Shown here: one piece after another, positions 8,430-53,946 of the stretch
Position numbering within the stretch: position 1 is the stretch's first letter
Layout of the letters: the number at the start of each line of letters is the position of its first letter
Origin: Somniosus microcephalus
Lineage: Eukaryota
Assembly: GCA_052327205.1 (NCBI GenBank)
Contig: CM126215.1
Span: forward strand, 77,438,001 to 77,502,000
Direction of reading: 5' to 3'
Length of the DNA stretch: 64,000 bases
Made by a program: the position numbers and the translations under genes
Notes under the pieces: generated by a model
Told to the model about the DNA's origin: nothing
The model's database searches: none
Seen by the model: the letters and a program-made list of their open reading frames with translations, nothing else

Positions 8430-8605
8430 TGTAGTGTCCGTGTGTTGATAGAGACACTGAAGACAGGAGTTGGTTCATAGGTGTTTACTAAGCAAAGTCT
8501 GGAGGGGTACTAACGGATATAACACAATATACAGGCTTATATAGCCCGAGTGGCCATTACCGGCATTACAGCACACATGGGGCTCTTAAAGGCACATACA
8601 CTACA
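8430..8605 (-). repeat. 3' LTR of Gypsy element 1
   Basis: Direct repeat of 13104-13279; no mismatch seen by eye. Confidence 0.97.
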
Positions 8606-8698
8606 ATTCCTCCCCTTTTAGCTAACCAGTACATCATATTTTAAGTAATTATTAATCACATATTATAAGAAAAATAATATACACATTGCTGTAGTTAA

Positions 8699-12686: not shown

Positions 12687-13103
12687 CTTAGAAAAGATAT
12701 GGCGCTTCCCGCGCTTTTCCGCCGCTGCTGCCGATGACAACGCTGTTTCCCGCGGTTTCTGTTCTTTTTTTATTTATTTATTTACAGTTGGAGACTCGTT
12801 CCCGCCGGACTTTCTCTCTAGGTCTGAACGCCGACCTGCTTGCAGCGCCGGCCGTCTCCCGAGTGCTCCCTCCCCGTTTGTTATTGCTTGCCTCTGATTT
12901 CGCTGCTTGTCCCAGCTGTAGAGCCAGCCGCTGGAGCCCCACCCTGACGCCCAGGAAGGATTAGCGCAGTACCTGCCACCAGCTTGGCCAGCTGGTGAAA
13001 CCACAGCTTCTTTCACTTCCTTGAGTCTTCTGGACGCCCGAGGAATCGATGTCCTTGAGGTGCTGCCGAATTGCAGGTAAGTCCGTTTCCACTTCGTCGC
13101 CAC

Positions 13104-13279
13104 TGTAGTGTCCGTGTGTTGATAGAGACACTGAAGACAGGAGTTGGTTCATAGGTGTTTACTAAGCAAAGTCTGGAGGGGTACTAACGGATATAACACA
13201 ATATACAGGCTTATATAGCCCGAGTGGCCATTACCGGCATTACAGCACACATGGGGCTCTTAAAGGCACATACACTACA
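13104..13279 (-). repeat. 5' LTR of Gypsy element 1
   Basis: Direct repeat of 8430-8605, adjacent to the PBS. Confidence 0.97.
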
Positions 13280-16200
13280 GTAACAATACCATGGAGGAGG
13301 AATTCCTAGAGTGTATACGGGATGGTTTCCTGGACCAATATGTCGAGGAACCAACTAGAGAACAGGCCATCTTAGACTGGGTATTATATAATGAGAAAGA
13401 ATTAATTAGCAATCTTGTTGTGCGAGGCCCCTTGGGGAAGAGCGATCATAATATGATAGAATTCTTCATTAAGATGGAGAGTGAAATAGTTGACTCAGAG
13501 ACTAGGGTCCTGAATTTAAATAAAAGAAACTACGATGGTATGAGGCGTGAGTTGGCTAGGATGAATTGGGGAACATTACTTAAAGGGTTGACGGTGGATA
13601 GGCAATGGCAAACATTTAAAGATCACATGGATGAACTATAGAATTTGTTCATTCCTGTTTGGTATAAAAATAAAACAAAAAAGGTGACTCAACTGTGGCT
13701 AACAAGGGAAATTAGAGATAGCATAAGATCCAAGGAGAGGACATATAAATTGGCCAGAAAAAGCAGCAAACCTGAGGATTGGGAGCAGTTTAGGATTCAG
13801 CAAAGGAGGACAACGGGATTAATTAAGAGGGGGAAAATAGAATATGAGAGTAAGCTTTCAGGGAACATAAAAACTGACTATAAAAGCTTCTATAGATATG
13901 TGAAGAGAAAAAGATTGGTGAAGTCAAGCGTAGGTCCCTTGCAGTCAGAATCAGGGGAATTTATAATGGGGAACAAAGAAATGGTTTGGTTCCGTCTTCA
14001 CAAAGGAGGACACAAATAACCTCCCAGAGATGTCGGGGAACATAGGGTCTAATGAGAGGGAGGAACTGAATGAAATCAGTATTTGTAGAGAAATGGTGTT
14101 AGGGAAATTGACGGGAATGAAGGCCGATAAGTCCCCAGGGCCTGATAATCTACATCCTAGGGTACTTAAGAAAGTGGCCCTAGAAATAGTAGATGCATTG
14201 CTGGTCATCTTCCAAAATTCTATAGACTCTGGCACAGTTCCCATGGATTGGCGGGTAGCTAATGTAACCCCACTATTTAAAAAAGGTGGTAGAGAGAAAA
14301 CGGGAATTATAGACCGGTAAGCCTGACATCGGTAGTGGAGAAAATGCTAGAGTCCATTATAAAAGATGTAATAGCAGAGCACTTGGAAAACAGTGATAGG
14401 ATCAGACAAATTCAACATGAATTTACAAAAGATAAATCATGCTTGACTAATCTACTGGAATTTTTTGAGATTGTGACTAGTAGAATAGATAAGGGAGAAC
14501 CAGTGGATGTGGTGTATTTGGACTTTCAGAAGGCTTTCGATGAGGTCCCACATAAGAGATTAGCGTGCAAAGTTAAAGCACATGGGATTGGGGGTAAGGT
14601 ACTGACTTGGATAGAGAACTGGTTGGCAGACAGGAAGCAAAGAGTTGGAATAAACGGGTCTTTTTCCGAGTGGCAGGCAGTGACTAGTGGGGTACTGCAG
14701 GGATCGGTGCTAGGACCCCAGCTATTCACAATATATATTAATGATCTAGATGAGGGAACTAGATGTAATATCTCCAAGTTTGCAGATGACACAAAGCTGG
14801 GTGGGCGTGTGTGCTGTGAGGAGGATGCAAAGAAACTCCAGTATGATTTGGACAGGTTGGGTGATTGGGCAGATGCATGGCAGATGCAGTATAATGTTGA
14901 TTAAAGCGAGGTTATCCACTTTGGTGGCAAAAACAGGAAGGCAGATTATTATCTGAATGGCAATAGATTGGGAAAAGGGGAAGTGCAACGAGACCTGGGT
15001 GTCCTTGTGCACCAGTCGCTGAAGGTAAGCATGCAGGTGCAGCAGGCGGTTAAGAAGGCAAATGGTATGTTGGCCTTCATAGCAAGAGGATTCAAGTATA
15101 GGAGCAAGGATGTCTTGCTGCAGTTGTACAGGGCCTTGGTGAGACCACACCTTGAGTATTGTGTGCAGTTTTGGTCGCCTTATCTGAGGAAAGATGTTCT
15201 TGCCATGGAGGGAGTGCAGCGAAGATTCACCAGACTGATACCTGGGATGGCAGGAATGACGTATGAAGAGAGATTGGGTCGGTTAGGCTTATATTCGCTG
15301 GAGTTTAGAAGAATGAGAGGGGATCTCATTGAAACTTATAAAATTCTAACAGGACTAGACAGACTAGATGCAGGAAGGATGTTCCTGATGGCGGGGGAGT
15401 CCAGAACCAGGGGTCACAGGCTAATGATAAGGGGTAAGCCATTTAGGACTGAGATGAGGAGGAATTTCTTCACCCAGAAAGTGGTGAACCTGTGGAATTC
15501 TCTACCACAGAAGGCAGTTGAGGCCAATTCATTAAATATATTCAAGAAGGAGTTAGATATATTTCTTAAGGCTAAAGGGATCAAGAGATATGGGGAGGAA
15601 GCAGGGACAGGGTACTGAATTTGGATGATAAGCCATGATCTCATTAAATGGCGGAGCAGGCTCAAGGGGCTGAATGGCCTACTCCTGCTCCTATCTTTTA
15701 TGTTTCTATGGGTCTGCAGGGGCGAGAGGGGTCGAAATGTCAGCTGTAGAGGTGAGTGATGGGTGCAAGTGTGGACAGGTAAATATGAGAGGTGAGTGTA
15801 AATTGTTGGAAAAAGTTTCCTTACATTTGCTTCTTTCTGCAGGCTTCAACCGTTAAGGATCCGAAGGTGTCTCATCTCAACGGCAGAGATGACAGAATGG
15901 CTGCTGCATTTTCAGATGCAGCAGCCATCTGCTTTCTGCTGAGGAGAGAGGTCTTGGTGAGCCTTAGAACAGTGATTGTCAGTGTTTGACAGTTTCTCAA
16001 AATTTTCGACAGATAAAGCGTCATACACTGACATCATCTGTCACCGGCTTTCCCTTCATTGGCCGGTAAGCCCGCAGGGTGGGCTTAACAAGGTCAATCA
16101 ATGGAAAATAGTGTGGGTTCGTCAGATGTTGCTGGGGGTGGGACTAGAACCCGAAAGGCAGCAGTCCCGCCCCCAACTCATCTCGCCTGGCAAAATGCTT

Positions 16201-25635: not shown

Positions 25636-27940
25636 AGAATCATAGAATGGTTACAGCACAGATGGAGGCCATTCAACCCATCGAGCCCATGCTGGCTCTC
25701 TGCAAGAGCATTTCAGCTAGTCCCACTCCCCCACCCTTTCTCCGTAGCCCTGCAAAAAAAAATTCCTTCAGGTACATGTCCAATTCCCTTTTGAAAGCCA
25801 TGATTGAGTCTGCCTCCACTACCCATTTAGGCAGTGCATTCCAGATCATAACCACTCGCTACATAAAAAAGGTTTTCCTCATGTCGCCTTTGGTTCTTTT
25901 GCCAATCACCTTAAATCTGTGTCCTCTGGTTCTCAACCCTCTGCCAATGGGAACGGTTTCTCTCTATCTACTCTGTCCAGACCCCTCATGATTTTGAACA
26001 CTTCTATCAAATCTCCTCTCAACCTTCTCTGCTGTAAGGAGAACAACCCAGCTTCTCTAGTCTATCCACATAACTGAAGTCCCTCATTCCTGGAACCATT
26101 CTCGTAAATCTTTTCTGCACCCTCGCTAAGGCTTTCACATCCTTCATAAAGTGCGGTGCCCAGAATTGGACACAATACTCCAGTTGAGGCCGAACCAGTG
26201 TTTTATAAAGGTTCATCATAACTTCCTTGCTGTTGTACTCTATTGTCTCTATTTATGAAGCCCAGGATCCCGCTTTCTCAACCTGTCCTGCCACCTTCAA
26301 CTATTTGTGCACATATACCCCCAGGTCTCTCTGTTCATGCACCACCTTTAGGAATATACTCTTTAGCTTATATTGCCTCTTCTCATTCTTCCTACCAAAA
26401 TGTATCACTTTGCACTTTTCTGCATTAAATTTCATCTGCCACGTGTCCGCCCATTTCACCAGCCTGTATATGTCCTTTTGAAGTTTATCACTATCCTCCT
26501 CACTGTTCACTATACTTCCAAGTTTTGTGTCATCTGCAAATTTTGAAATTGTGCCCTGTACACCCAAGTCTAAGTCATTAATATATATCAAGAAAAGCAG
26601 TGGTCCTAGTTCTGAGCCCTGGGGAACACCGCCATTCACCATTACTCTCTGTTTCCTGTCACTTAACCAATTTCGTATCCATGCTGCCACTGTTCATTTT
26701 ATTCCATGGGCTTCAACTTTGCTGGTAAGCCTATTGTGTGGCACTTTATCAAACGTCTTTTGGGAGTCCATGTACACCACGTCAACCACATTGCCCTCAT
26801 CAACCCTCTCTGTTACCTCATCAAAAAAACTCAATCAAGTTAGTTAAATATGATTTGCCTTTAACAAATCCGTGCTGGCTTTCCTTAATTATTCCACACT
26901 TGTCCCAGTAATTGTTACTTTTGTCCCTGATTATCGTTTCTAAAAGCTTCCCCACTACCGAGGTTAAACTGACTAGCCTGTAGTTGCTGAGTTTATCCTT
27001 ACACCCTTTTTTGAACAAGGGTGTAACATTTGCAATTCTCCAGTCTTCTGGCACCACTCCTGTATCTAAGGAAGATTGGAAGATTATGGCCAGTACCTCC
27101 GCAATTTCCACCTTAGCTTCCCCCAGCATCCTAGGATGCATCCCATCTGGTCCTGTTGACTTATCTACTTTAAGTACAGCCAGCCTTTCTAGTACCTCCT
27201 CTTTATCAATTTTTATCTCATCCAGTATTTCCACTACCTCCTCTTTCACTATGACTTTGGCAGCATCTTCTTCCTTAGTGAGGACAGATGCAAAGTACTC
27301 ATTTAGTACCTCAGCCATGCCCTCTGCCTTCATGCATAAGTCTCCTTTTTGGTCCCTAATCGGCCCCCACCCTACTATTACTACCCGTTTACTATTTATA
27401 TGCCTATAGAAGACTTTTGAATTCTCTTTTCTGTTAGCTGCCAGTCTACACCCATACTCTCTCTTTGCTCCTCTTATTTTCTTTTTCATTTCCCCTCTGA
27501 ACTTTCTATATTCAGCCTGATTCTCACTTGTATTCTCAACCTGACATCTGCCATACGTGTTCTTTTTCTGCTTCATCTTACTCAATATCTCTTTCATCAT
27601 CCAGGGAGCTCTGACTTTGATTGCCCTACCTTTCCCCCTCGTGGGAATGTACCTCGACTGTACCCAAACCAACTCTTCTTTAAAGGCAGCCCATTGTTCT
27701 ATTACAGTTTTGCCTGCCAATCTTTGATTCCAATTTACCCGGGTCAGATCCGTTCTCAACCCATTGAAATTGGCCTTCCTCCAATTAAGCATTTTTACTC
27801 TAGATTGCTCCCTGTCCTTTTCCATAGCTAATCTAAACCTTATGATACTATGATCACTGTTCCCTAAATGTTCTCCTACTGACACTTGCTCCATTTGCCC
27901 CACCTCATTCCTCAGAACCAGATCCAGCAATGCCTCCTTG
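25636..27940 (-). mobile_element. 5'-truncated CR1 LINE (second subfamily)
   Basis: ORF2 pieces 26821-27930, 26301-26690 (FADD), 26019-26219 plus 3' UTR. Confidence 0.92.
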
Positions 27941-34504: not shown

Positions 34505-37275
34505 CATACAGGGGTATTCAGTATTTAGGAAGGATCGACAAAAAAGAAAGGGAGGAGGGGTAGCATTGCTAGTAAAAGAGGGGATAAATGCAATTGAAAG
34601 GAAGGATATTAACTCAGTTAATACAGAATCTATATGGGTGGAGCTAAGAAATAGCGAGGGGCGAAAAACATTAATAGGAGTGGTATATAGGCCTCCAAAT
34701 AGTAAAATAGAGGTTAGGGAGGGCATCACGAGGGAAATTAGAGAAGCGTGCAATAAGAGCACAGCTGTCATCATAGGTGACTTTAACTTACATATAGATT
34801 GGACTAGCCTAATCAGTAAAAATAATGAGGAGGAGGAATTCCTTGAGTGTTTGAGGGATGGTTATCTGGATCAATATGTCGAGGAACCAACTCGGGAACA
34901 GGCTATATTGGACTGGGTACTGTGCAATGAGAAGGGACTAATCAGTAATCTTGTTGTACGGGGACCCTTGGGTCAGAGCGATCATAACATGATCGATTTC
35001 TCACTCGAAATGGAGAGCGAAGAAATTGACTCAGAGACTAAGGTCCTGAATTTAAACATGGGGAATTATGATGCCATGAGACGGGAACTGAGTAGGTCTG
35101 ATTGGACAACGTTCCTGGGAGGACTGGAGGTAGATAAACAATGGCAAACATTTAAAGATAGAATGACAAAATTGCAAAAATTGTTTATACCAATCTGGCA
35201 TAAAAGGAAATCTAAAAAGGTGACTCAACCGTGGATAACAGGGGAAATTAGAGACAGCATAAAATCCAAAGATAGGGCGTATAAAATAGCCAAAAAAAGC
35301 GCCAGAGCGGAAGATTGGGAACAGTTTAAGATAGAGCAAAGGAGGGCAAAGGGCATAATCAAGAGGGGCAAAATAGCTTACGAAAACAAGCTGGCGGAAA
35401 ATATAAAAACTAACTCCAAAAGCTTTTATAAGTATATCAAAAGGAAAAGACTGGTGAAAACCAAAGTTGGTCCATTGCAGTCAGATACGGGGGAATATAT
35501 AATGGGAAATAAGGAAATGGCAGATCAACTAAATGCATACTTTGGGTCAGTCTTTACGAAGGAAGACACAAAAAACCTCCCTGGGATATCGGGAAAAATA
35601 GGGACATTGGCAAAGGAGGAACTGACGCAAATCAATATCTCTAAGGATATGGTGTTAAGGAAGCTAAAGGGATTGAAGGTGGACAAATCCCCAGGGCCTG
35701 ATAACATGCATCCTAGGGTACTGAAGGAGGTGGCCCTAGAGATAGCGGATGCACTAAGGATGATTTTTCAGAATTCATTAGACTCGGGAACAGTGCCGAT
35801 GGATTGGAGGGTAGCTAACGTTACCCCACTATTCAAAAAGGGGGGTAGGGAAAAAGCAGGTAATTACAGACCTGTAAGCCTTACATCAGTTGTGGGCAAA
35901 ATGCTGGAGTCCATCATTAAGGATGAAATAGCGGAGCACTTAGCAAATGGGGACAGGATAGGACAGAGTCAACATGGATTTACAAAGGGTAAATCGTGCT
36001 TGACTAATCTATTGGAATTTTTTGAGGGAGTAACTGGTAGAATAGATGGGGGAGAGCCAGTAGATGTGGTGTACCTGGACTTCCAAAAGGCCTTCGATAA
36101 GGTCCCACATAAAAGATTAGCATGGAAAATTGAGGCTCATGGGATAAAGGGGAAAGTTTTGGCGTGGATAGGGAACTGGCTGTCAGATAGAAAACAGAGA
36201 GTTGGAATAAACGGCTCATTTTCTGAATGGCAGGCAGTAACAAGTGGGGTACCACAGGGATCTGTCCTGGGCCCCCAGCTGTTCACAATTTACATTAATG
36301 ACCTGGATCAGGGAGTCGGATGCAGCATTTCCAAATTTGCAGACGACACTAAACTAGGAGGGGGGGTGGGCTCAGAGGAAGAGACCAGGAAGCTCCAGAG
36401 CGATTTGGACAGACTGGGCGATTGGGCGGATAAATGGCAGATGCACTATAATGTGGACAAGTGCGAAGTTATCCACCTTGGGTGCAGGAACGGGAGGGCA
36501 AATTATTATTTAAATGGCAATAGATTGGGAGAGGGGGAAGTACAGAGAGACCTGGGTGTTCTTGCACACCAGTCACTGAAGGCGAGCATGCAGGTGCAAC
36601 AGGCGGTCAAGAAGGCAAACGGTATGCTGGCCTTCATAGCAAAAGGGTTAGAATACAGGAACAGGGATACCTTGCTGCAGCTGTACAGGGCACTGGTGAG
36701 ACCACACCTCGAGTACTGTGTACAGTTTTGGTCGCCTCATCTGAGGAAGGATGTTCTTGCCATGGAGGGGGTGCAGCGGCGATTCACCAGGCTGATACCA
36801 GGAATGGCGGGAATGACCTATGAGGAGAGACTATGTAGTTTAGGGATGTACACACTGGAGTTTAGAAGATTGAGAGGGGACCTCATAGAAGTGTATAAAA
36901 TTCTGACAGGTCTAGACAGACTGGATGCAGAAGGAATGTTTCCCTTGGCGGGTGAGAACAGAACTAGAGGACATAATTTAAGGATAAGGGCTAAACCATT
37001 TAGGACAGAGATGAGGGGGAATTTCTTCACTCAGAGAGTGGTGAACCTGTGGAACTCATTGCCACAGAGGGCAGTGTATGCCAGCTCATTAAATATATTT
37101 AAGAGGGAATTAGATATATTTCTACGGGCAAAAGGGGTTAAGGGTTACGGAGAGAAGGCGGGGACGGGATACTGAATTAAAGGATCAGCCATGATCTCAT
37201 TAAATGGCGGAGCAGGCACGAAGGGCCGAATGGCCTACTCCTGCTCCTATCTTCTATGTATCTATGTATCTATGT
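34505..37275 (+). mobile_element. young 5'-truncated CR1 LINE
   Basis: ATAA duplicated at 34501-34504 and 37276-37279; (TCTATGTA)n tail. Confidence 0.95.
34506..37175 (+). CDS. CR1 ORF2 (partial endonuclease + complete RT), uninterrupted but lacking its 5' start
   Basis: Frame open from the insertion boundary to TGA; GGGVA, YRPP, GDFN, SDHN, QGSVLGP, FADD. Confidence 0.9.
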   Translation: MQGYSVFRKDRQKRKGGGVALLVKEGINAIERKDINSVNTESIWVELRNSEGRKTLIGVVYRPPNSKIEVREGITREIREACNKSTAVIIGDFNLHIDWTSLISKNNEEEEFLECLRDGYLDQYVEEPTREQAILDWVLCNEKGLISNLVVRGPLGQSDHNMIDFSLEMESEEIDSETKVLNLNMGNYDAMRRELSRSDWTTFLGGLEVDKQWQTFKDRMTKLQKLFIPIWHKRKSKKVTQPWITGEIRDSIKSKDRAYKIAKKSARAEDWEQFKIEQRRAKGIIKRGKIAYENKLAENIKTNSKSFYKYIKRKRLVKTKVGPLQSDTGEYIMGNKEMADQLNAYFGSVFTKEDTKNLPGISGKIGTLAKEELTQINISKDMVLRKLKGLKVDKSPGPDNMHPRVLKEVALEIADALRMIFQNSLDSGTVPMDWRVANVTPLFKKGGREKAGNYRPVSLTSVVGKMLESIIKDEIAEHLANGDRIGQSQHGFTKGKSCLTNLLEFFEGVTGRIDGGEPVDVVYLDFQKAFDKVPHKRLAWKIEAHGIKGKVLAWIGNWLSDRKQRVGINGSFSEWQAVTSGVPQGSVLGPQLFTIYINDLDQGVGCSISKFADDTKLGGGVGSEEETRKLQSDLDRLGDWADKWQMHYNVDKCEVIHLGCRNGRANYYLNGNRLGEGEVQRDLGVLAHQSLKASMQVQQAVKKANGMLAFIAKGLEYRNRDTLLQLYRALVRPHLEYCVQFWSPHLRKDVLAMEGVQRRFTRLIPGMAGMTYEERLCSLGMYTLEFRRLRGDLIEVYKILTGLDRLDAEGMFPLAGENRTRGHNLRIRAKPFRTEMRGNFFTQRVVNLWNSLPQRAVYASSLNIFKRELDIFLRAKGVKGYGEKAGTGY

Positions 37276-41475: not shown

Positions 41476-42305
41476 TTCCCCCTAGTTCTCCCCGCCTATC
41501 TAGCTCAAATAACCTGTCCACTTAAAAAGAATGTAATCCCTTCATTATTTTAAACATCATAATCGTATCTTCCCCATACAAATCTCCTGTTCCCTAAGCC
41601 TATCCTGATACTTAAGGTCCCATAAACTTGGACCTTTTCCAGAGGTTCAATATCTCCCCTCCCCCACCAGGTGAGTGGACCAAAAATGAACACAGTATCT
41701 AGATGTGGCTGAACCAAAGCCTTGTACCAGGTAAGGATTGTATTTACAGTTTTATATTTAATTGTCCTAGCTATATATCCAACAGTCTATTCGCTTTTGC
41801 AACAACATGGATTACATAGGATATACGGCACCGAAACAGGCCATTCGGCCCAACCAGTACATGCTGGCGTTTATGCTCCACTCGAGCCTCCTCCCGTCTT
41901 TCCTCACCTAACTCTATCAGCGTAACCCTCTATTCCCGTTTCCCTCATATGCTTGTCTAGTCTCCCCTTAAATGCATCTATAATATTCACTTCAACCACT
42001 CCCTGTGGTAGCAAGTTCCACATTCTCACCACTCTTTGGGTAAAGAAGTTTCTTCTGAATTCCCTATTGGATTTCTTGGTGACTATCTTATATTGATGGC
42101 CTCTAGTTATGCTCTTCCCCACGAGTGGAAAGATTCTCTCTGTATCCACTCTATCAAAATCTTTTATAATTTTAAAGACCTCTATTAGGTCACCCCTCAG
42201 TCTTCTTTTTTCAAGAGAAAAGAGACCCAGACTGTTCATCCTTTCCTGATATTTATACCCTCACATTTCTGGTATCATCCTTGTAAATCTCCTCTACACC
42301 CTCTC

Positions 42306-42560
42306 TGTAAAGTCTGTGGGTTGTACAGTTAATAACGACACAGACTTCAGGAATAACAAACAAACAGGTCTTTACTATTCGAAGGTCAGGGCGAATCTGC
42401 CCAAGGAATCATGCCACAACACTTATATACCGGTGTGGTCACCGTCGGTATTACAGTATACAGAAGCCAAACAAGTAGTGCCACACCTAAAGTAGTTCTC
42501 TTAAAGGTGAACGGTTACATACAATAGTTCTCTTAAAGGTAGACGGGTACATACACTACA
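42306..42560 (-). repeat. 3' LTR of element 2
   Basis: Direct repeat of 47323-47577; contains an internal ~32-bp tandem duplication. Confidence 0.97.
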
Positions 42561-42943
42561 ATCCTCCCTTTTTAGCTTATTACATACAGAGTCCCCATTA
42601 AACATAACATATCTTCAACTTCATATAAAACAATTTACAGACATAGTCTCAGTGGGAAACAGTTCACAGGTTCAGTCTCTGCAGGAACAGTTCACAGATT
42701 CAGTCTCTGATCTTGACTCGGTCCGAACAACATCTCTTTGGTGTAGGTGGTTCACATTGCTAGCGTGACTCCTCCATATCCTTTTCTTGACGTAACAGCT
42801 TGAACTTTCGTCCTGCTGAACCAGCAGTGCTGACTTTTACAACAACTGGGTTGCCTTGATATTTTCCTACTTCCCAACTGATTTAACTCCTTTCGTAGGG
42901 TCCACGCATGATCTGGTAGAAGTGATAATATTTGCGATAGTTA

Positions 42944-45900
42944 TCATCCTCTGCTTCTTCTTTTTCTTTTCTGCTTTTTGGAGACTCTCGGGGCTCCCTT
43001 ATCAGCTGCCAGCTGTAGCGCCACCAACTCTCTATGTTCCTTCGACTTTAAGTGCTTCATCCTGATTTCGGCACTTTGGGAGTTTTCATCACAAACTGGG
43101 CAGACCACATCCTCGTAATGTTCAGTGTCACTCAACAGGTCATGGTAATATTCGGGTTCGTCCTGAGTTAGGCCAGCGAGAGGGCCTTCTACTTCCTCCT
43201 TACCCATCTGAACGTTAGCTGACTGTGGTTCCTTCCCTAGACATCTTTCTTGAAAAGACTTCTTCATGCATTCATCTTCATTCCGCTCTTCCTGGGTTTC
43301 CTGCAAATCCTTCACTAATGACCTCATTTGTGATTTCAATACTTCCCCTTCCCTCGGGGATTGATTGATCGGGCTATTCAATCCTTCTACTGGAGCAGCT
43401 GTTTCAACATTCTGTTGTTCACATAGACGCGATTCAGCGTACTTTTGGCATCCCAGTAAAGTCTGTTTTGCAACCTCAGCTATTTCCCAAACTTTTGAGA
43501 GCTCTGAACTCCTTCCCGTTGAAGATTGAAGCTCGTGTTCAGATTGTTCCCATTGCAGAGTCTTTTCCCTCAGCATATGAAGGAGTTGGCTGACTGTTAA
43601 CTCTTCCACGGGAACACTGTGGATCAGAGTCTTCTCCATTTCATCCACCTTTTCCTCCAATGCTTCCACCCTCTGTTCCTCTTGTACTTTGGCTTTCAGC
43701 GCTCGGAAAAGTTGCGCCCTGATACTCTCTAGCTCATGTTCAGGGACCATTCTTACAGTCTCTGTGTTTCTTACAGTTTCCTTTTCTTCCACTGAAAGGA
43801 TTCCCAGTTGAATCTGTTCTTCAAGTTGTTGAACCTCGGACATTGCCGCCTCATATTTGTCTTGGGTTTCCTTCAATATTTTTATGAGTTCTTGGACATC
43901 TTGTCTTTCATGTTCTGCCATGTCTTTCACCTCTAATTTCTCATCTATGGATGGAACTTCTACCGATGAGTCTGTCTTGGCCTTGAGCTCATCAAGAATT
44001 TCCTGCAGCCTTTGGACTTCTTGCTCATGTTCAACCTTTAGTTGTTCATATGCTTCTACTGAAACTAGCTTTTCGGAGGTTGCCGAGTTAACCCCCTCCA
44101 GAATTGTAGCCTGGGCCTGTTCATACTGTTCTTTCAACTTCTCACACTCTGCTTGTAAGGAGTCGTAGAGAAGAACTGGAATAACATCCTGGCTTCCTGA
44201 AGATTCCTCTTCATTTGCTTCTTTCACAATTTCCTGTTGGAGTTCAGCCAAGGCTGCTATGCTATCTGCCTCTCGAAGTCTCACTGCCATCAAATCTTCT
44301 TTATTCTTGCAGTCTATCTCAGCCATTTTCCGATTACTTTCATTTAACTGAGTGAGTAGTCCCTTATTCTGGGCTGAGAGATATTGCACCTTCTCATGTA
44401 GACCATAGCACTCCTTCTCTGCTCGACATAGCTGGTTACTGCTGATTTGGTTCTGTGTTTCAAGTTCCAACATCCTTTGCTTAGCTTCTTTCAGTTTCGC
44501 CCCTATAAGCTCCTCTTGCAACATGACCACATTATTCACATCAGGTAAAGAAGCGTTTCTCTTTTCCATGTCCAAGATTTTTTCCTGCATATCTTTAAGT
44601 GCACACTGCGATTCAGCTTCTCTTAACCTTGCTTGCACTAGCTCCGTCTCCAATTGCAGAACAAAATCCTCAGTGTAGCGTGGTTTGCCTTTATGCTGTA
44701 TCTCTAGATCATGCAAATATTCTAACTCCTGAACATCATAAGGGAGATGTGATCGGTAATTGGTCACGATGGCTCTATGGTCGCTCTTTGCTTGAGCTAG
44801 CTGCCTCTGCTGTCTTTCCAGGTTCTCCCATTCGGTGTCCCAGAACTTTTCCATTGTTTTCATCTCTTGTACGAGACGGTAACCCAACTGTTCTAATTGT
44901 TGTCGTACTTTGAAATAAGTTTGAGTCCGAGTTCGGTGTTCTTCCGTCGTGGATAAGTCCTTAATTTGAACAGGCTCAGAATTCTCTGTCAAACTGGAGT
45001 TCTGCTCTGAAGCTTTATTCTTCTCGGTGGCATAAGCCTTTATGCATGTCTTCGTTTTCTCCACCATAGTCGGCAAGTTCATTTTAGCCTTGTCTTCCAT
45101 ATTTGAGTTGGTCTTATCGTCATCCGTTTCAGAATCTGAGCTGATAGCTTGCACCGAGTCCTCACTCATTATGGCTTTTAGATAGTGCCATTCCATGTCT
45201 ATTTTCTTGATCCACTCTCGTCCTAGAAGTGGTGGTCCTCCCTCAGATAATACGTACAAGTTCATTCTTGGGTGTTCTTTACCCCTATCTCTCACCTTGA
45301 CTCTTATCTTCCCCATGGGGTATACCTTATGCCCTGTGTATGTCTGCAATACGAACTTGGTATTTCTTAAGGGTATGTGAGAGAATAGCCGGTGGTAGTC
45401 TCTTCGATTTATGACTGATAGAGCTGATCCAGTGTCCAACTCCATTCTTACTTGGACTCCAGCTATTTTTAGTATGACCCAGATAGTTTGTAGGTCAGCT
45501 TCCTTACTCACATTGTGAATTCTCAGACTACCCAGCTCCTGGCTGTTTGGGTCTGAGTCTGAATTCTGTTCGTCTGAACTCTTCTCAGCCACCTTGTGTA
45601 CCTTGTTGTACTTTTCTTGTGGTGGCTTCCTTTGGCTGTTGGTCTTCTTCCCTGACTGGCACACCTTAGCGATGTGACCCAGTTTGCCACATTTCCTACA
45701 TTCTTGGTTCTTAAACCAGCATTGATTCTGGTCGTGTGTTGTCTTCCCACAACGATAGCATTTTGTTGTACTTGAGGTAATTTGGTCCACCCCAAGTGCC
45801 GCCGCCTTTAGCTGCATTTCCGCCGTTCCTTTCGCTGCGGCTTCGTGCGATGCGGCTATAAGGACAGCCCTGTCAAGTATGAGGTCGTTCTCTTCGAGTA

Positions 45901-46270
45901 GTCGCTTTTGTGTCCCTTCCTTGGACAATCCGCATACGAACTTGTCTCGCAGTGCCTCTGTCAGATTCCCTCCGAACTGGCAGCATTTCGCTAGCCTACG
46001 CAGTTCGACCAAATATTCCGCGTTGCTTTCGTCTTTCCGTTGCGTTCTTGCATAGAATTTGAATCGTTCAGCCAACATCAATGGTGTGGGGTTCAAGTGG
46101 TCCTTCAGAACAGCCACAATCCCTTCAAAAGTCTGATCCGCCGGTTTAGCTGGTGCTAGTAGATGCTTCAAGAGCCCGTATGTCTTTGCGCCCATCGAGT
46201 TTAGCAATGTTATCGCTTTGTCGTCTTCCTCTATTTTGTTGGCTTCACAATAGATCTCGATGCGTTCCAC
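42944..46270 (-). CDS. chimeric polyprotein: Gag + aspartic protease + EVI5-like + ANKRD24/RAI14-like + optineurin-like + DNAJC21-like segments
   Basis: 1108 open codons; two CCHC knuckles (aa 171-204), LDTGSA (aa 278-283), then host-like coiled coils and a C2H2 finger. Likely true ATG at 46330 is followed by TGA at codon 4. Confidence 0.85.
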   Translation of the reverse strand: MERIEIYCEANKIEEDDKAITLLNSMGAKTYGLLKHLLAPAKPADQTFEGIVAVLKDHLNPTPLMLAERFKFYARTQRKDESNAEYLVELRRLAKCCQFGGNLTEALRDKFVCGLSKEGTQKRLLEENDLILDRAVLIAASHEAAAKGTAEMQLKAAALGVDQITSSTTKCYRCGKTTHDQNQCWFKNQECRKCGKLGHIAKVCQSGKKTNSQRKPPQEKYNKVHKVAEKSSDEQNSDSDPNSQELGSLRIHNVSKEADLQTIWVILKIAGVQVRMELDTGSALSVINRRDYHRLFSHIPLRNTKFVLQTYTGHKVYPMGKIRVKVRDRGKEHPRMNLYVLSEGGPPLLGREWIKKIDMEWHYLKAIMSEDSVQAISSDSETDDDKTNSNMEDKAKMNLPTMVEKTKTCIKAYATEKNKASEQNSSLTENSEPVQIKDLSTTEEHRTRTQTYFKVRQQLEQLGYRLVQEMKTMEKFWDTEWENLERQQRQLAQAKSDHRAIVTNYRSHLPYDVQELEYLHDLEIQHKGKPRYTEDFVLQLETELVQARLREAESQCALKDMQEKILDMEKRNASLPDVNNVVMLQEELIGAKLKEAKQRMLELETQNQISSNQLCRAEKECYGLHEKVQYLSAQNKGLLTQLNESNRKMAEIDCKNKEDLMAVRLREADSIAALAELQQEIVKEANEEESSGSQDVIPVLLYDSLQAECEKLKEQYEQAQATILEGVNSATSEKLVSVEAYEQLKVEHEQEVQRLQEILDELKAKTDSSVEVPSIDEKLEVKDMAEHERQDVQELIKILKETQDKYEAAMSEVQQLEEQIQLGILSVEEKETVRNTETVRMVPEHELESIRAQLFRALKAKVQEEQRVEALEEKVDEMEKTLIHSVPVEELTVSQLLHMLREKTLQWEQSEHELQSSTGRSSELSKVWEIAEVAKQTLLGCQKYAESRLCEQQNVETAAPVEGLNSPINQSPREGEVLKSQMRSLVKDLQETQEERNEDECMKKSFQERCLGKEPQSANVQMGKEEVEGPLAGLTQDEPEYYHDLLSDTEHYEDVVCPVCDENSQSAEIRMKHLKSKEHRELVALQLAADKGAPRVSKKQKRKRRSRG

Positions 46271-46584
46271 GTACGTGGCCCAGTCTTCTATCTCAGAATT
46301 AAAATCGTTAATATTCCCTCACTTAGGCATCTTCCTTTCCTTGGGAGCAGCACAAGTATTTCTTTAAATTCTTATTTATTATTTATTTATTTCTAAGATG
46401 GCGGTTTTTCCCGCGAAAATGGCGGTTTCCCGCTCTTTCCTTCTCTCCCCGCCCCTTCAATGGCGGTCTCCCGCGTCTGTCGTCTTCTCCGCCTAATGGT
46501 GGCTTCCCGCGTTTCTTCCCTGGTGGGAGGGATACGCTTTCCCCACAGCGGACAGGTTCAGCCGCTGGGCTGGCTTCCGCACAG

Positions 46585-46810
46585 CTCCCCTTACTCGGCT
46601 CTGTCTTTCTCTCCCGCTCGCACGGCTCTACCGGCGCTGGGTACCCTGTTCACGGAGAACAGTTCAGCCGCTGGACTGGCTCTCGCGCAGCCTCTCTCCC
46701 CTTGCTCGGCTCTGTCTCTCTCTCCCCCACGTTCGGCTCTACCGGCGCTGGGTACCCCGTTGGTGGAGAACAGTTCAGCCGCTGGACTGGCTCTCGCGCA
46801 GCCTCCTTTA
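46585..46810. repeat. GC-rich tandem duplication, period 111 bp, in the leader of element 2
   Basis: GGAGAACAGTTCAGCCGCTGGACTGGCTCTCGCGCAGCCTC at 46654 and 46765. Confidence 0.9.
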
Positions 46811-47322
46811 GTCGGCTCTGCCTCTCCCACACGCCCGGCTCCCGTTCGCCTCCCAGCCCTCACGCAGTCCGGTGCTTCCCTCCCCGGCTGCGGCTGAGTT
46901 TCTCTCTTCCCGCGCCTGCTCCCGGTCTCAGCGCTTCGTGGCTTCGGTCGCTGCCCGGCTTTTCCCGCCGATCGCGGTCCGGCTATCTCACGACGCCGTC
47001 GGACCCGCCTTCCTGACCAGCTCTGCTCCCCCTCGACCGTGGTCGAGTGAAAACCCCTATCCTCCGGATTTCGTTACACCTTCCCCTACTCACAGTCTCC
47101 GCGGCCGCCTTGTTTCCTGCTGATCGGCTCACTCCGCACCGTGGTAGAAGGGTAGTCAGTGCCTGTTGCTGCTGGAAGCTTTTGTTGCTAAAGTCTTCCT
47201 CCTTTCTATTGCTGCAGCCTCGTGTTTTCTTCCAGCAGAACGACGAGGGCGGTTGCCTCTCTTCGACGCTCTTTAGTTGCTTTGGTAGTCTTGCCGCAGG
47301 GTACGATCGGACTTGTCGCCAC

Positions 47323-47577
47323 TGTAAAGTCTGTGGGTTGTACAGTTAATAACGACACAGACTTCAGGAATAACAAACAAACAGGTCTTTACTATTCGAA
47401 GGTCAGGGCGAATTTGCCCAAGGAATCATGCCACAACACTTATATACCGGTGTGGTCACCGTCGGTATTACAGTATACAGAAGCCAAACAAGTAGTGCCA
47501 CACCTAAAGTAGTTCTCTTAAAGGTGAACGGTTACATACAATAGTTCTCTTAAAGGTAGACGGGTACATACACTACA
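47323..47577 (-). repeat. 5' LTR of element 2
   Basis: Direct repeat of 42306-42560, adjacent to the PBS. Confidence 0.97.
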
Positions 47578-48194
47578 CTCTCCAGTCCCTCTATATCCTT
47601 TTTATAATATGGTGTCCAGAACTGCACGCAGTACTCTAAGTGTGGTCTAACCAAGGTTCGATACAGGTTTAGCATAACTTCCCTACTTTTCAATTCTATA
47701 CCTCTAGAAATAAACCCTAGTGCTTGGTTTGCTTTATTTATGGCCTTGCTAACTTGTGTTGCAACTTTTAATGATTTGTGTATTTGTACTCCTAGATCCC
47801 TTTGTTCCTCTACCCCATCCAGACTCGCACCCTCCAAGTGATAAGTGACCTCCCTATTCTTCCTACCAAAATGTAATACCTCACATTTATTTGTGTTGAA
47901 CTTCATTTGCCAATTATTTGCCCATTCCGCAAGTTTATTAATGTCCTCCTGTAATTTCTTGCAGTCCTCCTCAGTATTGATTATCCCCCCCAATTTGGTG
48001 TCATCTGAAAATTTAGAAATTGTGTTTTTGATTCCAAAGACTAAATCGTTAATGTAAATTGTGAACAGCAGTGGTCCCAGCACTGATCCTGGTGGAACAC
48101 CACTACCCACCTTCTGCCACTGTGAATAGCTACCCTTTACTCCTACTCTCTGCTTTCTGTCCTGAAGCCAGCCAGCAATCCATTCTGCTAGTAC

Positions 48195-50315
48195 GATAGC
48201 AAAATACTGCAGATGCTGGAAATCCGAAATAACAACAGGAAATGCTGGAAAAATTCAGCAGGTCAGGCAACATCCATGGAGAGAAAATAGAGTCAACGTT
48301 TCAGGTCAAACCCTTTGTCAAGACTGGAAAAGCACAGGAAATAAAATAGATTAAAAGCCCGGGCTGGGAGAGAACAAAAGAGAAGTGCAGAGACATTAAG
48401 AGGTATTCAAAACGAGACGAGATGGTGATAGGACTAGTGGAGACAAAAGATGGCTCTAGATTAGGTGTGAAATGTGCTGGCCGAATGGGAGACAGCTGCC
48501 ATGTGGGAGAGAAAAAAAGGTGGGGGGGGGGAAAGGGCCAAAACAAAGGTGTGGATAAAAAATAAGTAAAAATATAATGGGGGCCGAGGTTATGATCTGA
48601 AATTGTTGAACTCGATATTGAGTCCGGAAGGCTATAAAGTGCCTAATCGGAAGATAAGGTGCTGTTCCTCGAGCTTACGCTGAGCTTCTGTGGAACAATG
48701 CAAGAGCCCGAGTACAGTGAGGTCTGAGTGGGAATGGAGCGGTGAATTGAAATGACAGGCGACCGGAAGCTCGGGGTCATCCTTACGACTGAACGGAGGT
48801 ATTCCGCAAAGCGGTCACCCAATCTGCGTTTGGTCTCCCCAATGTAGAGGAGACCACATTGTGAGCAGCGAATACAGTATACTAGATTGCAAGAAGTACA
48901 AGTAAATCGCTGTTTCACCTGGAAGGGGTGTTTGGGGCCCTGGACAGTGGGAAGGGGGGAGGTATAAGGGCAGGTGTTGCATCTCCTGCGCTTGCACGGG
49001 AAGGTGCCGGGCGAAGGGGAAGGGGTGCTGGGGGTGATAGAGGAGTGGACTAGGGTGTCTCAGAGGGAGCGGTCCCTACGGAATGCTGAAAGGGGAGGGG
49101 AGGGGAAGATGCATTTGGTGGTGGGATCACTTTGGAGGTGGCGGAAATGGCGGAGGATGACCCGTTGAATGTGGAGGCTGGTGGGGTGAAAGGTGAGGAC
49201 AAGGGGAACCCTATCGTGGTTCCAGGAGGGAGGGGCAGGTGTGAGGGCAGAAGTGCGGGAGATAGAACGGACACGATCGAGGGCCGTGTCAACCACGGTA
49301 GAGGGGAATCCTCGGTTGAGGAAAAAGGAAGACATGTCGGAAGCACTGGTGTGGAAGGTGCCATCGTCAGAGCAGATGCGGCGGAGATGGAGACACTGGG
49401 AGAATGGAATAGAGTCCTTACAGGAGGCGGGGTGGGAGGAAGTGTAGTCCAGGTAGCTGTGGGAGTCAGTGGGCTTGTAGTGAATGTTGGTTAATAACCT
49501 ATCCCCAGAGATGGAGACGGAGAAGTTGAGGAAGGGAAGGGAAAAATCAGAGATGGACCATGTGAAGGTGAGGGAAGGGTGGAAATTGGAGGCAAAGTGA
49601 ATGAAATTGTCTAGTTCAGGGCGAGAGCAGGAAACGGCACCGATACAGTCATCAATGTACCGGAAAAAGAGGTGAGGGAGGGGACCCGAGTAGGACTGGA
49701 ACAAAGAGTGTTCCACATATCCCACGAAAAGGCAGGCATAGCTAGGACCCATGCGGGTACCCATGGCAACACCTTTGATTTGGAGGAAACGAGTGGAGTC
49801 AAAGGAGAAGTTGTTCAATGTGAGAACAAGTTCAGCCAGGCGGAAGAGGGTAGTGGTGGGTGGGGACTGGTCGGGCCTCTGTTCAAGGAAGAAGCGGAGC
49901 GCCTTCAGGCCACCCTGGTGGGGGATGGAGGTGTAGAGGGATTGTACGTCCATGGTGAAAAGGAGGCGGTTGGGGCTAGGAAACTGGAAACTGTTAAAGT
50001 GGTGGAGGGCGTCTGAAGAGTCGCGGATGTAGGTGGGAAGAGACTAGACAAGGGGAGAAAAGATAGAGTCGAGATAGGAAGAGATAAGGTCGGTGGGGCA
50101 AGAACAGGCTGAAACGATGGGTCTACCAGGGCAGTCCGGTTTGTAGATCTTGGGAAGGAGGTAGAAGCGGGCTGTGCGGGGTTGGGGAACTATGAGGTTG
50201 GTGGCCACGGGGGGAAGATCTCCAGAGGAGATGAGGTCAGTGACAGTCTTGGAAATGGTGGGTTGATGTTTGGTAGTGGGGTCATGGTCCAGGTGGAGGT
50301 AGGAGGAGGTGTCTT
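48195..50315 (-). mobile_element. 5'-truncated Penelope-like element (RT + GIY-YIG endonuclease), disrupted
   Basis: LLPKIYK..PGRPIVS, DVQSLYT, GVAMG, RYIDD (49060-49953); VYCIRC..CGLLYIGETKR (48643-48918). Confidence 0.93.
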
Positions 50316-51213
50316 GTCTGCTACTTGTCCCCTGACCCCACATTCTCTGACCTTATTCATCAGTCTATTATGGGATAGCTTATCGAAGGCCTTTTGAAAA
50401 TCCAGGTAAATTACATCTACTGTATTACCGTTGCCATTACCATTACAATTACTGCATTCGGTGTTTTATAAACTACAACCCTCCAGTCCTTCTACTGCTC
50501 AGCAGCCTCAGCAGGTCAATATGGATGGTATCTACATGCTTGGAATTACCCCAGCCCAAATGCATTGCTTGTATTACATTGAAAGACATCTGCCACTCAT
50601 GGGCCCATTTCCCCATTGCATCTAGGTCTGTCTGCAGACTATTTATTTTGGCCACAATTTTAACTCTTGCATATATTTTCATGTCATCAGCAAACTTCTG
50701 GACCATTCCTTTGAGGCCTTCATCCAGATTATTAATAAAGATAGTGGAGAGCAACTCACCTAACGTAGATCTTGGTAACTAGCAACCGACTCCCACACAG
50801 AGCTGCTACAATTAAAATCCACCTCTGTCTATTCGAATGCACCCAATTCTTTATCCAACCTAAGATCTGCCCGCCAATTGTAAATGTCGCAACCTTACTT
50901 AGCCTTTCGTGCGGTACTTTATCAAAGGCTTTTTGAAAATCGAGATAGACAATATGTACCAGGCTTCCATCATCCAACAACTTTGTAACCTGTTCCAAAA
51001 AATTCAATCCTGTTGGTGAGACAGGACCTCCTTTTCTAGAAGCCGTGCTGTGATTTCCTAATAGCCTCTGCTCTTTCTAAATGATCATGCAATACATCCC
51101 TAATAACACCTTCCAGCAACTTGCCTATAACTGAAGTTAAACTAATGAGCCTACAATTTTCTAGTTCTTAGTTGCTGCCTTTTTTAAATATTGGCACCAC
51201 ATGGACCTCACTC

Positions 51214-53946
51214 TGTATTGATTTCTTTGTGGGTTCAATGACGAGACATTTATGAAAGAGAATGTCTTTTTAATCTAAAGTCTGTTCAACTCTTTATACA
51301 GCATTTACAGGAGACATCATGCCAGTGATGCATCTAGAACGAAACTGAAACTAAACCAAACTGCTTGTCTCTGTCACATGACCTCTGCTGGTCAGGCATA
51401 AGTAATCAATACCTGCAACTATGCTGGTAAGGCATGATAATCAAACAGGCAAATAACATCACTATTTGCTGATATCATTACATCTCCCTTTCTTAAAACA
51501 AAAGTATTTTACTTTTAACTAACAACATGTTTTCTTTGTATTAATCTGCATTTTAACTGTAACACTTAATGAACTTACATTAACATTATCATTATCAAGG
51601 TTTTTTAACCTTGCTTTGTGTGTTCACATGAAATATGTAAATGCACTAGAACTTGAAGAAAGAATAAGATAACATTACTTCCTTCTATAACAATAGTCCT
51701 TAAATTTGCTCAATGAGTCTCTCAGGAGGCTTCACGCGTCTTGAGGATTTTCTGATTGATTGTCCTTGAATCTGAGTTGTTGCCTCAGATGATGTGTTCT
51801 CAGCTGTGTGATCAGGTTGTTCAACAGTATCAGTCTCTTGACCTGCTGTGGCTGGTCCCATGAGAAGATCTCGGCGATTTCTTCTCAGAACAGCACCCTC
51901 ATCTGTCTGAATGGTGTATGATCTTGGTTGAACTTCACTCAGGACAGTTCCCTTCTGAGTCCATGTGTTTGTTTTGTCTTTGAACCTTACTTGGTCACCA
52001 GTGTGGAGTTCAGGTAGGTTTTGTGTTCCTCTGTCATAGTAGTACTTTTGCTTTTCTTTCTGTTGCTCTTTGAACTTCCTCACTTTCTCCCCCTCTTTTG
52101 TTTTCAGGAGGTTCTCCGGGATGGGTAGGTTTGACCTTAGCATACGTCCCATAAGGAGTTGGGCTGGTGACATACCACACTCGAGCGGCGTTGTGCGGTA
52201 TACAAGCATGCTCTGGTAGAAGTCAGTTCCACTGTCTTTTGCCTTGCACATCAGTCTTTTCACTGTGTTTGCGGGCTCTCCTGGGTCAACAGCTCTGGAC
52301 AACGTGTCTGCTGTATACATCAGCTTACCCGGTGTGTACGCAACATTCAGTTCATCATAGACTGTCTCTCCTTCGCTTTCCACAACGAGGACTCTCTTTA
52401 CCAGGTTCAGTCTCTCACAGGCTTTTAAACCTAGTATGGCTTGCACATCCTTTGGCACCACGATTAATGCTAGCGTGTGCTCTCTGTCCTTGTGTGTTAC
52501 TTTGACAATGCATCTTCCTTTCACTGGTATATCAGTACCTGTGTATCCTGTCACTTTCACTTTTATTCCATGTATCTTTGGTCTGGGTCTAATTTTCTTA
52601 AAATCAGTCTCTGATATCACATTAACTTGTGCTCCAGTATCCAATTTAAATGGAATATGTATGTCATTCACTTTTAGTGTCAACATCCAGTCTCTTTCTT
52701 CTTTTTTGTTTTCAGACACAACATCTACATAGAACTCCTCTATCTCACTTTCATCTACTGTATGGACCTTGCTTTGTTGCGCTTGGTTCTTGCAGCAACG
52801 GGCATAATGGTTGTTTTTGTTGCAACTATTGCATGTTTTACCATATGCTGGACACTTTCTTGGTGTATGCTGTGTACCGCATCGACTACATGACTTTCGA
52901 TTGTCCCTTTCATGTTTGTTCGCTGGCCACGCCTCTTTTTTCACATTGGCGCTCTTTTTGTTAACCGGTTTGTGTCCGTTCATTCTCACTGCATCCACGT
53001 TGCAGCTATTATCACTGAACAGCTCCTTTGCCTGCAACTTCACAGTCTCTGTAGCCCTACACAGTGCTATGGCTTTTCCCAGGTCTAGATCTTGCTCTCT
53101 TAGCAGTCTTTCCCTTAGACCATTATCTGGAATACCACACACCAGTCTGTCTTTTATCAGCGAGTCTGTCAGTCCCCCAAATTCACACGATTTGCTTCGG
53201 TTTCTCAGTTCAGTCACATACTGATCAATAGTCTCACCCGTTTTCTGTACACATGTGAAAAATCTGTGCCTCTCAAACGTCACGTTACGTTTAGGTATGC
53301 AGTAGGCCTCAAACTGTTCCATTATTTTATCTAGCTTCATTTTGTCTCCATCAGCAGCGAATGTGAAGTTATTATACACCTCCAGCGCTTCATCACCCAC
53401 GACATGTAAGAACAGTGACGATTTCCTTTTATTACTTTTCTCGTCAGCTCCGATTGCTGATAAATACAACCCCACACGTTGTTTGAATCTCCTCCAATTT
53501 TCAGCCACATTACCTGTCAACTGAAGCTTCGCCGGTGGGAGTAAACCTTCCATTTTTCACTTCGTTAGCTATTCTCTAATGGTAAGTAACAATGTTCTCT
53601 TTTGGCTTGCTAATTTGTGGAGAGCTGATTTAACTTCAGATTTTTTCTCTTCATCTCTTTCAGCCACTTCTGACACCATGTATTGATTTCTTTGTGGGTT
53701 CAATGACGAGACATTTATGAAAGAGAATGTCTTTTAATCTAAAGCTTGTTCAACTCTTTATACAGCATTTACAGGAGACATCATGCTAGTGATGCATCTA
53801 GAACAAAACTGAAACTAAACCAAACTGCTTGTCTCTGTCACATGACCTCTGCTGGTCAGCCATAAGTAATCAATACCTGCAACTATGCTGGTAAGGCATG
53901 ATAATCAAACAGGCAAATAACATCACTATTTGCTGATATCATTACA
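51214..53946 (-). mobile_element. internally deleted Gypsy LTR retrotransposon (element 3)
   Basis: LTRs 51214-51482 and 53679-53946 (about 5 substitutions + 1 indel by eye), TSD CACTC, PBS TGGTGTCAGAAGTGG (tRNA-Leu-like), PPT AAGAAAGGGAGA. Confidence 0.96.
51700..53553 (-). CDS. Gag-protease fused in frame to the RNase H tail and integrase C-terminus (617 aa)
   Basis: CSRCG..H..CPA..CNSC..NHY..C; LDTGAQ; YTPGK..ADTLSR; YRTTP...SPAQLLMGR; RRNRR; no YxDD. Confidence 0.9.
   Translation of the reverse strand: MEGLLPPAKLQLTGNVAENWRRFKQRVGLYLSAIGADEKSNKRKSSLFLHVVGDEALEVYNNFTFAADGDKMKLDKIMEQFEAYCIPKRNVTFERHRFFTCVQKTGETIDQYVTELRNRSKSCEFGGLTDSLIKDRLVCGIPDNGLRERLLREQDLDLGKAIALCRATETVKLQAKELFSDNSCNVDAVRMNGHKPVNKKSANVKKEAWPANKHERDNRKSCSRCGTQHTPRKCPAYGKTCNSCNKNNHYARCCKNQAQQSKVHTVDESEIEEFYVDVVSENKKEERDWMLTLKVNDIHIPFKLDTGAQVNVISETDFKKIRPRPKIHGIKVKVTGYTGTDIPVKGRCIVKVTHKDREHTLALIVVPKDVQAILGLKACERLNLVKRVLVVESEGETVYDELNVAYTPGKLMYTADTLSRAVDPGEPANTVKRLMCKAKDSGTDFYQSMLVYRTTPLECGMSPAQLLMGRMLRSNLPIPENLLKTKEGEKVRKFKEQQKEKQKYYYDRGTQNLPELHTGDQVRFKDKTNTWTQKGTVLSEVQPRSYTIQTDEGAVLRRNRRDLLMGPATAGQETDTVEQPDHTAENTSSEATTQIQGQSIRKSSRRVKPPERLIEQI

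Follow-up and report, generated by a model that had tools for sequence, protein, structure and literature searches.

Acutely transforming retroviruses are helper dependent and carry gag fused to captured, spliced host mRNA, and in plants TR-GAG and other gag-bearing non-autonomous long terminal repeat (LTR) elements have kept Gag, have lost pol, and need a helper. The maize LTR element Bs1 is present in low copy number. Bs1 combines segments of three host genes in a chimeric open reading frame (ORF) that is transcribed and translated (PMC13317346, PMC7264820), and ORFs transduced by LTR elements usually occur in one or a few copies (PMC7264820). In animals, Tan et al. (2016) described LTR retrocopies in which internal ORFs have been replaced by spliced mRNA at short matches, with chimeras of several genes and signs of further non-autonomous rounds; cartilaginous fish are not among the species named in the accessible portion of that report (PMC5131818). 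Dong et al. (2016) described pseudogenes derived from circular RNA (circRNA), including 33 copies of circRFWD2 in the mouse, with LTR-enriched flanks, by a mechanism that they call unknown (PMC4897178). Here we describe an LTR element from the cartilaginous fish Somniosus microcephalus, located at 42306-47577 (minus strand, 5,272 bp) of a 64,000-nucleotide stretch (assembly GCA_052327205.1, contig CM126215.1, positions 77,438,001 to 77,502,000; the window, to which our coordinates refer), in which the Gag-protease frame continues through fragments of five host genes. It is a member of a cargo-bearing clade of about 13,000 copies, and we consider it probable that this helper-dependent Ty3/Gypsy clade is selected to keep an RNA of near-helper length translated to its 3' end.

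On its structure, the element is classed as a non-autonomous Ty3/Gypsy derivative, with the following parts.

47578..47582 (no strand; partner at 42301-42305): target site duplication (TSD) CTCTC, 5 bp, on both sides of the element
47323..47577, minus strand: 5' LTR, 255 bp, TG...CA ends
47305..47322, minus strand: primer-binding site (PBS), with an LTR-end+PBS motif common to pol-encoding elements
46331..47304, minus strand: 5' leader of ~1 kb with imperfect ~110-bp tandem repeats
45536..46330, minus strand: gag with zinc knuckles, start ATG at 46330
45176..45535, minus strand: aspartic protease with a DTG motif, in frame with gag
44930..45175, minus strand: low-complexity linker common to cargo-bearing families
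44795..44929, minus strand: decayed coiled-coil fragment of STK10/SLK (Pfam PKK; either paralogue)
44711..44804, minus strand: ANKRD24/ankycorbin piece 1, consisting of the end of exon n+1, the 66-nt exon n+2, and the start of exon n
44226..44698, minus strand: spliced EVI5 coiled-coil fragment, a few codons past the back-splice-type junction
43600..44225, minus strand: ANKRD24/ankycorbin piece 2, the rest of exon n, 626 bp
43193..43606, minus strand: optineurin (OPTN) fragment spanning three host exons
42944..43186, minus strand: DNAJC21 zinc-finger fragment, Lys/Arg-rich tail, and stop codon
42574..42943, minus strand: 3' untranslated region (UTR), a coding tail in sister families that here lies 3' of the stop and has many 1- to 2-nt indels
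42561..42573, minus strand: polypurine tract (PPT)
42306..42560, minus strand: 3' LTR, 255 bp

The two LTRs differ by 1 mismatch in 255 bp. A sequence-only reading of this DNA had listed the LTRs, TSD, PBS, and PPT, all of which were found again, and a Gag-protease running on without reverse transcriptase (RT), RNase H, or integrase. In agreement with this, a Pfam search of the window-copy ORF returned only a zinc knuckle and an aspartic protease, all under the curated cut-offs (the protease is above the cut-off in sister elements), and none of the three pol domains; the region in which an autonomous Ty3/Gypsy element carries its own RT, RNase H, and integrase is host derived. An env-like ORF was likewise not found in the element by ORF and Pfam scan, the helper 3' ends having been read only in part. 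The single ORF of 1108 codons claimed by that reading is real as a long frame, but its first codon is the ATG at 46330, and 12 of 30 fetched copies keep it open over 1128 codons. In the window copy, codon 4 of gag is an in-frame stop (46319-46321), and the 1108 codons are therefore a remnant that begins at a later GTG. The insertion lies in a region of what we take, from its translations, to be a CR1-like long interspersed nuclear element (LINE) fragment.

Homologue searches identified the cargo as EVI5 (E 3e-72), ANKRD24/ankycorbin (E 6e-79), optineurin (E 2e-26, with 25 of 25 matches being optineurins), and, through the better-kept sister copy L045, DNAJC21 (E 2e-17). A direct homologue search with cargo residues 495-748 did not return DNAJC21; aligned pairwise, the window tail is identical to shark DNAJC21 at 17 of 38 positions (E 4e-9). 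The best named matches are all shark proteins. Thus, the four donors that had been proposed are all supported, but the mosaic is richer than four fragments. STK10/SLK is a fifth donor (Pfam PKK, E 2e-16 in sisters and 1.5e-3 in the window copy), and ANKRD24 supplies two pieces, in permuted exon order and with the EVI5 insert between them. The EVI5 fragment has lost an internal stretch between two similar repeats without a change of frame, and the OPTN fragment of the window copy contains a short compensated frameshift. A PDB search with the whole cargo gave no match, the ESM Atlas returned generic zinc-finger or coiled-coil clusters only, and no additional unnamed fused relative was present among the best 150 rows of a representative-protein search. 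We located three of the donor genes in the 6.45-Gb genome that carries the element (EVI5 on C3, ANKRD24 on C13, and OPTN on C17), and ANKRD24 piece 2 matches its host exon at 96% identity over 626 bp. No host gene was located for DNAJC21 or for STK10/SLK; a gene found by a PF21884 profile match was dropped as DNAJC21 donor, as we read it as DNAJC2 instead, a label that is our assumption.

The mosaic of the window copy, recognized by its EVI5/ANKRD24 junction, defines family A. This junction has 842 matches genome-wide (control, 0), and the 2.3-kb cargo has 40 scored matches, each of them full length and 99 to 100% identical. The 3' flanks are distinct in 30 of 30 copies and 5-bp TSDs are present in seven of the eight copies checked, so that an assembly chimera is rejected and the recent transposition and multicopy state proposed earlier are borne out. 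LTR pairs of fetched copies differ at 0 to 8 of 255 bases, and the mean ORF divergence is 0.9% among the 28 copies closest to the window copy (L014 and L017 were left out of copy comparisons, their 5' part being unrelated DNA). Two family A junctions, G000:C1:56140958 and 56146271, lie 5.3 kb apart on the same strand and probably belong to a tandem pair of elements. At the level of the clade, a 20-mer from the linker has 13,027 genome matches versus 160 for its control, from which we estimate about 13,000 cargo-bearing copies; exact matches number 18,136 for LTR-end+PBS and 10,753 for PPT+LTR.

Families B, C, and D share Gag-protease, linker, and LTRs with family A and differ in their cargo, which is of three types: long OPTN without a zinc finger (family B lacks the finger), OPTN with DNAJC21, and a myosin-tail-like segment with DNAJC21. 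The last is represented by L045 (G000:C6:64213000-64219500), where Pfam Myosin_tail_1, presumably a cingulin-like sequence, reveals a sixth donor; the window copy thus has five donors and the clade at least six. L045 carries an additional short piece 5' of DNAJC21, perhaps from a seventh. ORFs keep to 961 to 1128 codons across the OPTN-long, myosin-tail-like, and ANKRD24/EVI5 versions, so that the cargo is interchangeable, and the frame is kept between families at 15 to 20% DNA divergence. In all four families the ORF terminates in a Lys/Arg-rich run (L042-L047; window 42944-42980), reached by two routes, namely, the basic patch of DNAJC21 in A and a shifted integrase end in B/C/D. Possibly, this is convergence on a nuclear-import or RNA-binding tail. 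The ligands of the cargo zinc finger are retained in the sequences inspected. Two variants are of separate note: L064, L067, and L069 form a subfamily with an in-frame tandem duplication within the OPTN cargo, and in L048 a LINE has inserted in frame near the end of the cargo ORF, creating a Gag-cargo-LINE frame of 1,400 codons.

The cargo was captured from spliced host RNA, since its pieces hold host exon-exon junctions. In the sister families, six host exons make up the OPTN cargo, each linked to the next at the splice sites and mostly at 95 to 98% identity; three of these exons are left in the window copy, at 81 to 90% identity. The edges of the EVI5 cargo coincide with the edges of host exons that lie 35 kb apart. 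The ANKRD24 cargo begins with the last part of exon n+1, continues with a complete 66-nt exon n+2 (bounded in the host by AG..GT), and then enters the start of the upstream, 1,512-nt exon n, with the donor of the downstream exon placed exactly onto the acceptor of the upstream exon (44729/44728), as in a back-splice. As each of the three exons has a length divisible by three, the frame is kept across the permuted join. Since the ANKRD24 join is unbroken in the intermediates without EVI5, L071 and L063, EVI5 was inserted later. Very probably, judging from this exon order, the ANKRD24 piece derives from a circular RNA. Other mechanisms can yield non-colinear exon junctions as well (PMC4897178); for instance, CAG/G is common to exon junctions, and a template switch there could mimic the ANKRD24 join. 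A separate full member of the clade with ANKRD24 cargo and no EVI5 (L077:671-5562; G000:C13) lies antisense inside ANKRD24 itself, in the intron that separates exons n+1 and n+2; the TSD of this member is CTCAC, and its LTRs are 98.4% alike. The sequence-only reading had proposed serial mRNA capture, for which the exon-exon junctions, the EVI5-free intermediates, and the sister cargos now speak; it did not notice a fifth donor, a back-splice junction, the early stop at codon 4, or the clade of ~13,000 copies.

Relatives that bear pol exist alongside the cargo elements. On C1, 38 of the first 100 listed PBS sites paired with a listed PPT, and of 14 elements sampled from these pairs, skewed toward long ones, 9 are cargo bearing and 5 encode RNase H-integrase, a helper-to-cargo ratio that rests on a small, length-skewed sample. 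In the pol-bearing elements, 900 bp each and the two terminal motifs were read: four of the five are stop-free over 300 codons, and their best PDB match is Ty3 Gag-Pol (E 3e-14), with RNase H followed by integrase. Their LTR-end/PBS and PPT motifs are those of the cargo elements, which makes them likely helpers that would mobilize the cargo clade in trans, consistent with the helper dependence suspected from the window alone. The PBS-PPT distance is 3.2 to 5.2 kb in 35 of 38 pairs and 5.0 to 5.2 kb in the sampled helpers; the stop lies 79 to 370 nt from the PPT in the four families and 79 nt from it in a pol-type copy. The window itself holds two further LTR elements on the minus strand. One, at ~8430-13280, is a pol-bearing Gypsy copy with matches to RT, RNase H, and integrase, broken frames, and identical LTRs of 178 bp; it is 65% identical to our element in gag-protease and 82 to 89% identical to the helper family in RNase H-integrase, and its LTR is different. 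The other, at 51213-53945, is a separate element of 2.7 kb with 269-bp LTRs that are 97.8% alike and a 617-codon ORF, in which Gag-protease runs in frame into an apparent integrase C-terminal tail after an internal deletion. Possibly, this element follows the same rule of staying in frame to its end, without host cargo.

What is conserved in the cargo appears to be the frame rather than the residues. Between family A and its sisters, the dN/dS ratio (omega) is 0.07 to 0.08 (NG86) or 0.12 to 0.19 (YN00) for Gag and 0.19 to 0.32 for protease, both of which are under purifying selection, and 0.59 to 0.73 (NG86) or 0.88 to 1.19 (YN00) for OPTN. When the six host OPTN exons were compared with those elements that carry them, out of 17 compared, there were 127 non-synonymous and 58 synonymous changes, with an omega of 0.78 to 1.01, and none of the 185 changes created a stop, against 6.8 to 8.7 expected (P 0.0002-0.0012). 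Among the changes common to at least two elements, again no stop was seen, against 4.5 to 5.8 expected (P 0.003-0.011). Changes to proline were not avoided (8, versus 7.7 to 8.5 expected). In a neutral simulation, 0 of 2,000 runs were still open after 200 substitutions. The abandoned 3' tail of family A provides a natural control for frame-keeping in the ORF: after the stop had shifted ~300 nt upstream, this tail accumulated many 1- to 2-nt indels, whereas length differences between families in homologous ORF blocks are multiples of three, save for one compensated shift. In the 5' leader, frameshifting indels are frequent when families are compared. Hence, the cargo residues are near neutral and stops are selected against. 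The sequence-only reading had offered selection either on a Gag-protease-cargo protein or on a translatable RNA; the latter option is favored, and a specific protein is not, given the near-neutral omega of OPTN and the absence of stops. It had also taken a cargo dN/dS near 1 to speak against selection, which is too strict because omega is near 1 and yet stops are missing and indels keep the frame.

We infer that the clade supplies Gag and protease itself and that its RT and integrase come from the pol family whose LTR end, PBS, and PPT it shares. RT in the particle would switch template onto co-packaged host RNAs, namely, spliced mRNAs and probably one circular RNA, replacing part of the internal region with host RNA sequence, and only products with a frame open from gag to near the 3' LTR would spread. 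As the frame would have to stay open this far, the cargo would act mainly as translated filler, allowing an RNA near helper length without a 2.5-kb untranslated tail. In other words, the two presumed constraints, near-helper RNA length and a stop near the 3' LTR, would be met by in-frame host coding sequence. As to why translation should matter, the leading candidate is escape from nonsense-mediated decay (NMD) of RNAs with a long 3' UTR, to which retroviral RNA with a long untranslated tail is exposed (PMC5580461). Alternatively, nascent Gag may be tethered cotranslationally to its own RNA; sequence alone cannot separate the two.

RNA evidence comes from two raw runs (X23 and X24) with one organism label that is not tied to this assembly; public runs from three organism labels contain over half of the cargo words, although no RNA run is among those indexed. 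In X23, read at 24%, stranded reads span the whole element, and over the internal region the first mate lies on the plus strand, as expected of sense transcripts in the usual type of stranded library; of the 29,803 placed reads, 2,493 are at least 99% alike. The strand bias is much weaker in X24. The four listed skips internal to the ORF have net lengths of 486, 486, 486, and 150 nt, all multiples of three (97 further joints lie beyond this listing), and of 12 listed small indels in public runs none falls in the ORF. A peak of read ends at 47335 was dropped as a start site, since LTR reads fit two places.

Several observations weigh against our explanation. The shared changes of the ANKRD24 cargo have an omega of 0.43 to 0.56 (P 0.017-0.096) and the linker is constrained (NG86 omega, 0.3 to 0.5), part of which may be explained by changes in the host lineage. 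The sisters L045-L048 were picked for long open frames, and the stop test is therefore inflated, a bias that the subset of changes common to at least two elements lessens but does not remove. One stop in the PKK piece is common to L064 and L067, which differ from each other at 5 positions and from an open sister at 9 to 10 each, suggesting that a stop-bearing sublineage may have spread. Cargo polymorphisms within family A are too few to reveal selection, most reads in the RNA runs are only 90 to 95% alike, and insertion is open to short elements too, as the 2.7-kb Gag-protease deletion element in the window demonstrates. Some stops occur in more than one family A copy, and we considered whether these mark spreading lineages; they look recurrent, because the copies concerned have no other variant in common.

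A rather doubtful alternative, although the best placed of three, is that the cargo polypeptide has a composition-level or site-specific role in the particle, as a soluble, acidic, extended tail that replaces the mass of Pol, with the zinc finger and basic C terminus serving in nuclear import or RNA binding. The named cargos are mostly E/K/Q-rich coiled coil (0.33, versus 0.18 in helper RNase H-integrase), but they have been replaced wholesale, and within OPTN omega is near 1, proline is not avoided, and a frameshift was tolerated once compensated. Similarly, the zinc ligands are retained wherever inspected, but family B dispenses with the finger. The Lys/Arg run at the end of all four families and the omega below 1 of ANKRD24 and linker fit such a role. 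Camouflage, an idea from plant gene-capture work, seems unlikely to us. Here, host-like cargo would evade Piwi-interacting RNA or other silencing aimed at helper pol, translation marking the RNA as self. It would account for the repeated replacement of old cargo by fresh, for the abundance of sense transcripts in one RNA run, and for cargo copies that look commoner than pol-bearing ones (13,027 linker versus 18,136 LTR-PBS matches); however, Gag, protease, and LTRs, held in common with the helper, would stay targets, and old cargo has drifted 10 to 19% from the host. Drift, with template switches favoring short E/K/Q-codon matches and lucky lineages remaining in frame without cargo selection, is already disfavored and very improbable: short matches occur at the ANKRD24/OPTN junction, the EVI5 internal deletion, and some other junctions, and 14 of 17 young Drosophila LTR retrocopies are in frame, but 14 of 21 older retrocopies carry loss-of-function changes (Tan et al., PMC5131818), and drift fails to explain both the lack of stops in the OPTN cargo and the contrast with the decayed 3' tail.

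Elsewhere in the window, a 350-codon ORF at 444-1496 (minus strand) resembles what we take to be a Harbinger-type transposase/HARBI1, and 14344-15618, 26821-27894, 34989-37175, and 49060-49953 hold, presumably, CR1-like LINE RT fragments and one Penelope-like RT fragment.

Returning to selection for translation to the 3' end, we lean, by a little, toward the broader view that in this vertebrate LTR clade of ~13,000 copies host RNA capture is a standing part of the life cycle, with fragments of spliced mRNA and circRNA being exchanged in the place of pol under selection for translation itself. If true, the clade amounts to a large-scale natural experiment on the part that translation plays in protecting or packaging retroelement RNA, in which selection on being translated is separable from selection on protein sequence, with thousands of replicates and the donors in the same genome. 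It would also offer a concrete route for circular RNA into genomes, a point left open in PMC4897178. Exons of at least six genes have, moreover, been shuffled by this single clade of transposons. In practical terms, the clade occupies roughly 1% of the 6.4-Gb genome (estimated as 13,000 x ~4.7 kb), and its copies will be misannotated as paralogues of OPTN, EVI5, ANKRD24, or DNAJC21, inflating the expression estimates of those genes.

No description of this clade was found in literature searches, which excluded subscription journals, supplements, Repbase, and Dfam. Like Bs1, it is an LTR element with several host-gene segments in one chimeric ORF; unlike Bs1, it has five donors in the window copy and at least six overall, ~13,000 copies, cargo that is continually swapped, purifying selection on both Gag and protease next to near-neutral cargo residues, and a vertebrate host. 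As in the retrocopies of Tan et al., the captured OPTN, EVI5, and ANKRD24 sequences are without host introns, but those retrocopies are individual young loci, whereas the chimeras described here make up a major repeat clade whose frame survives 15 to 20% divergence. With circRNA-derived pseudogenes the clade has in common a non-colinear exon junction in genomic DNA; here, however, the junction is part of a complete, TSD-flanked LTR element, it is in frame with gag, and an EVI5-free intermediate exists. In contrast to TR-GAG elements, protease is kept and pol is replaced by host coding sequence, not only deleted. The gag-onc viruses differ in that our element is a germline genomic repeat without an env-like ORF or any sign of infectivity and with cargo residues not conserved for function, and the helper pol, unlike that of retroviruses, matches Ty3. 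Thus, mRNA capture by LTR elements is already known, and what differs here is the scale and the continual in-frame exchange of cargo, together with selection on an open frame whose residues drift and a back-splice junction inside a complete element.

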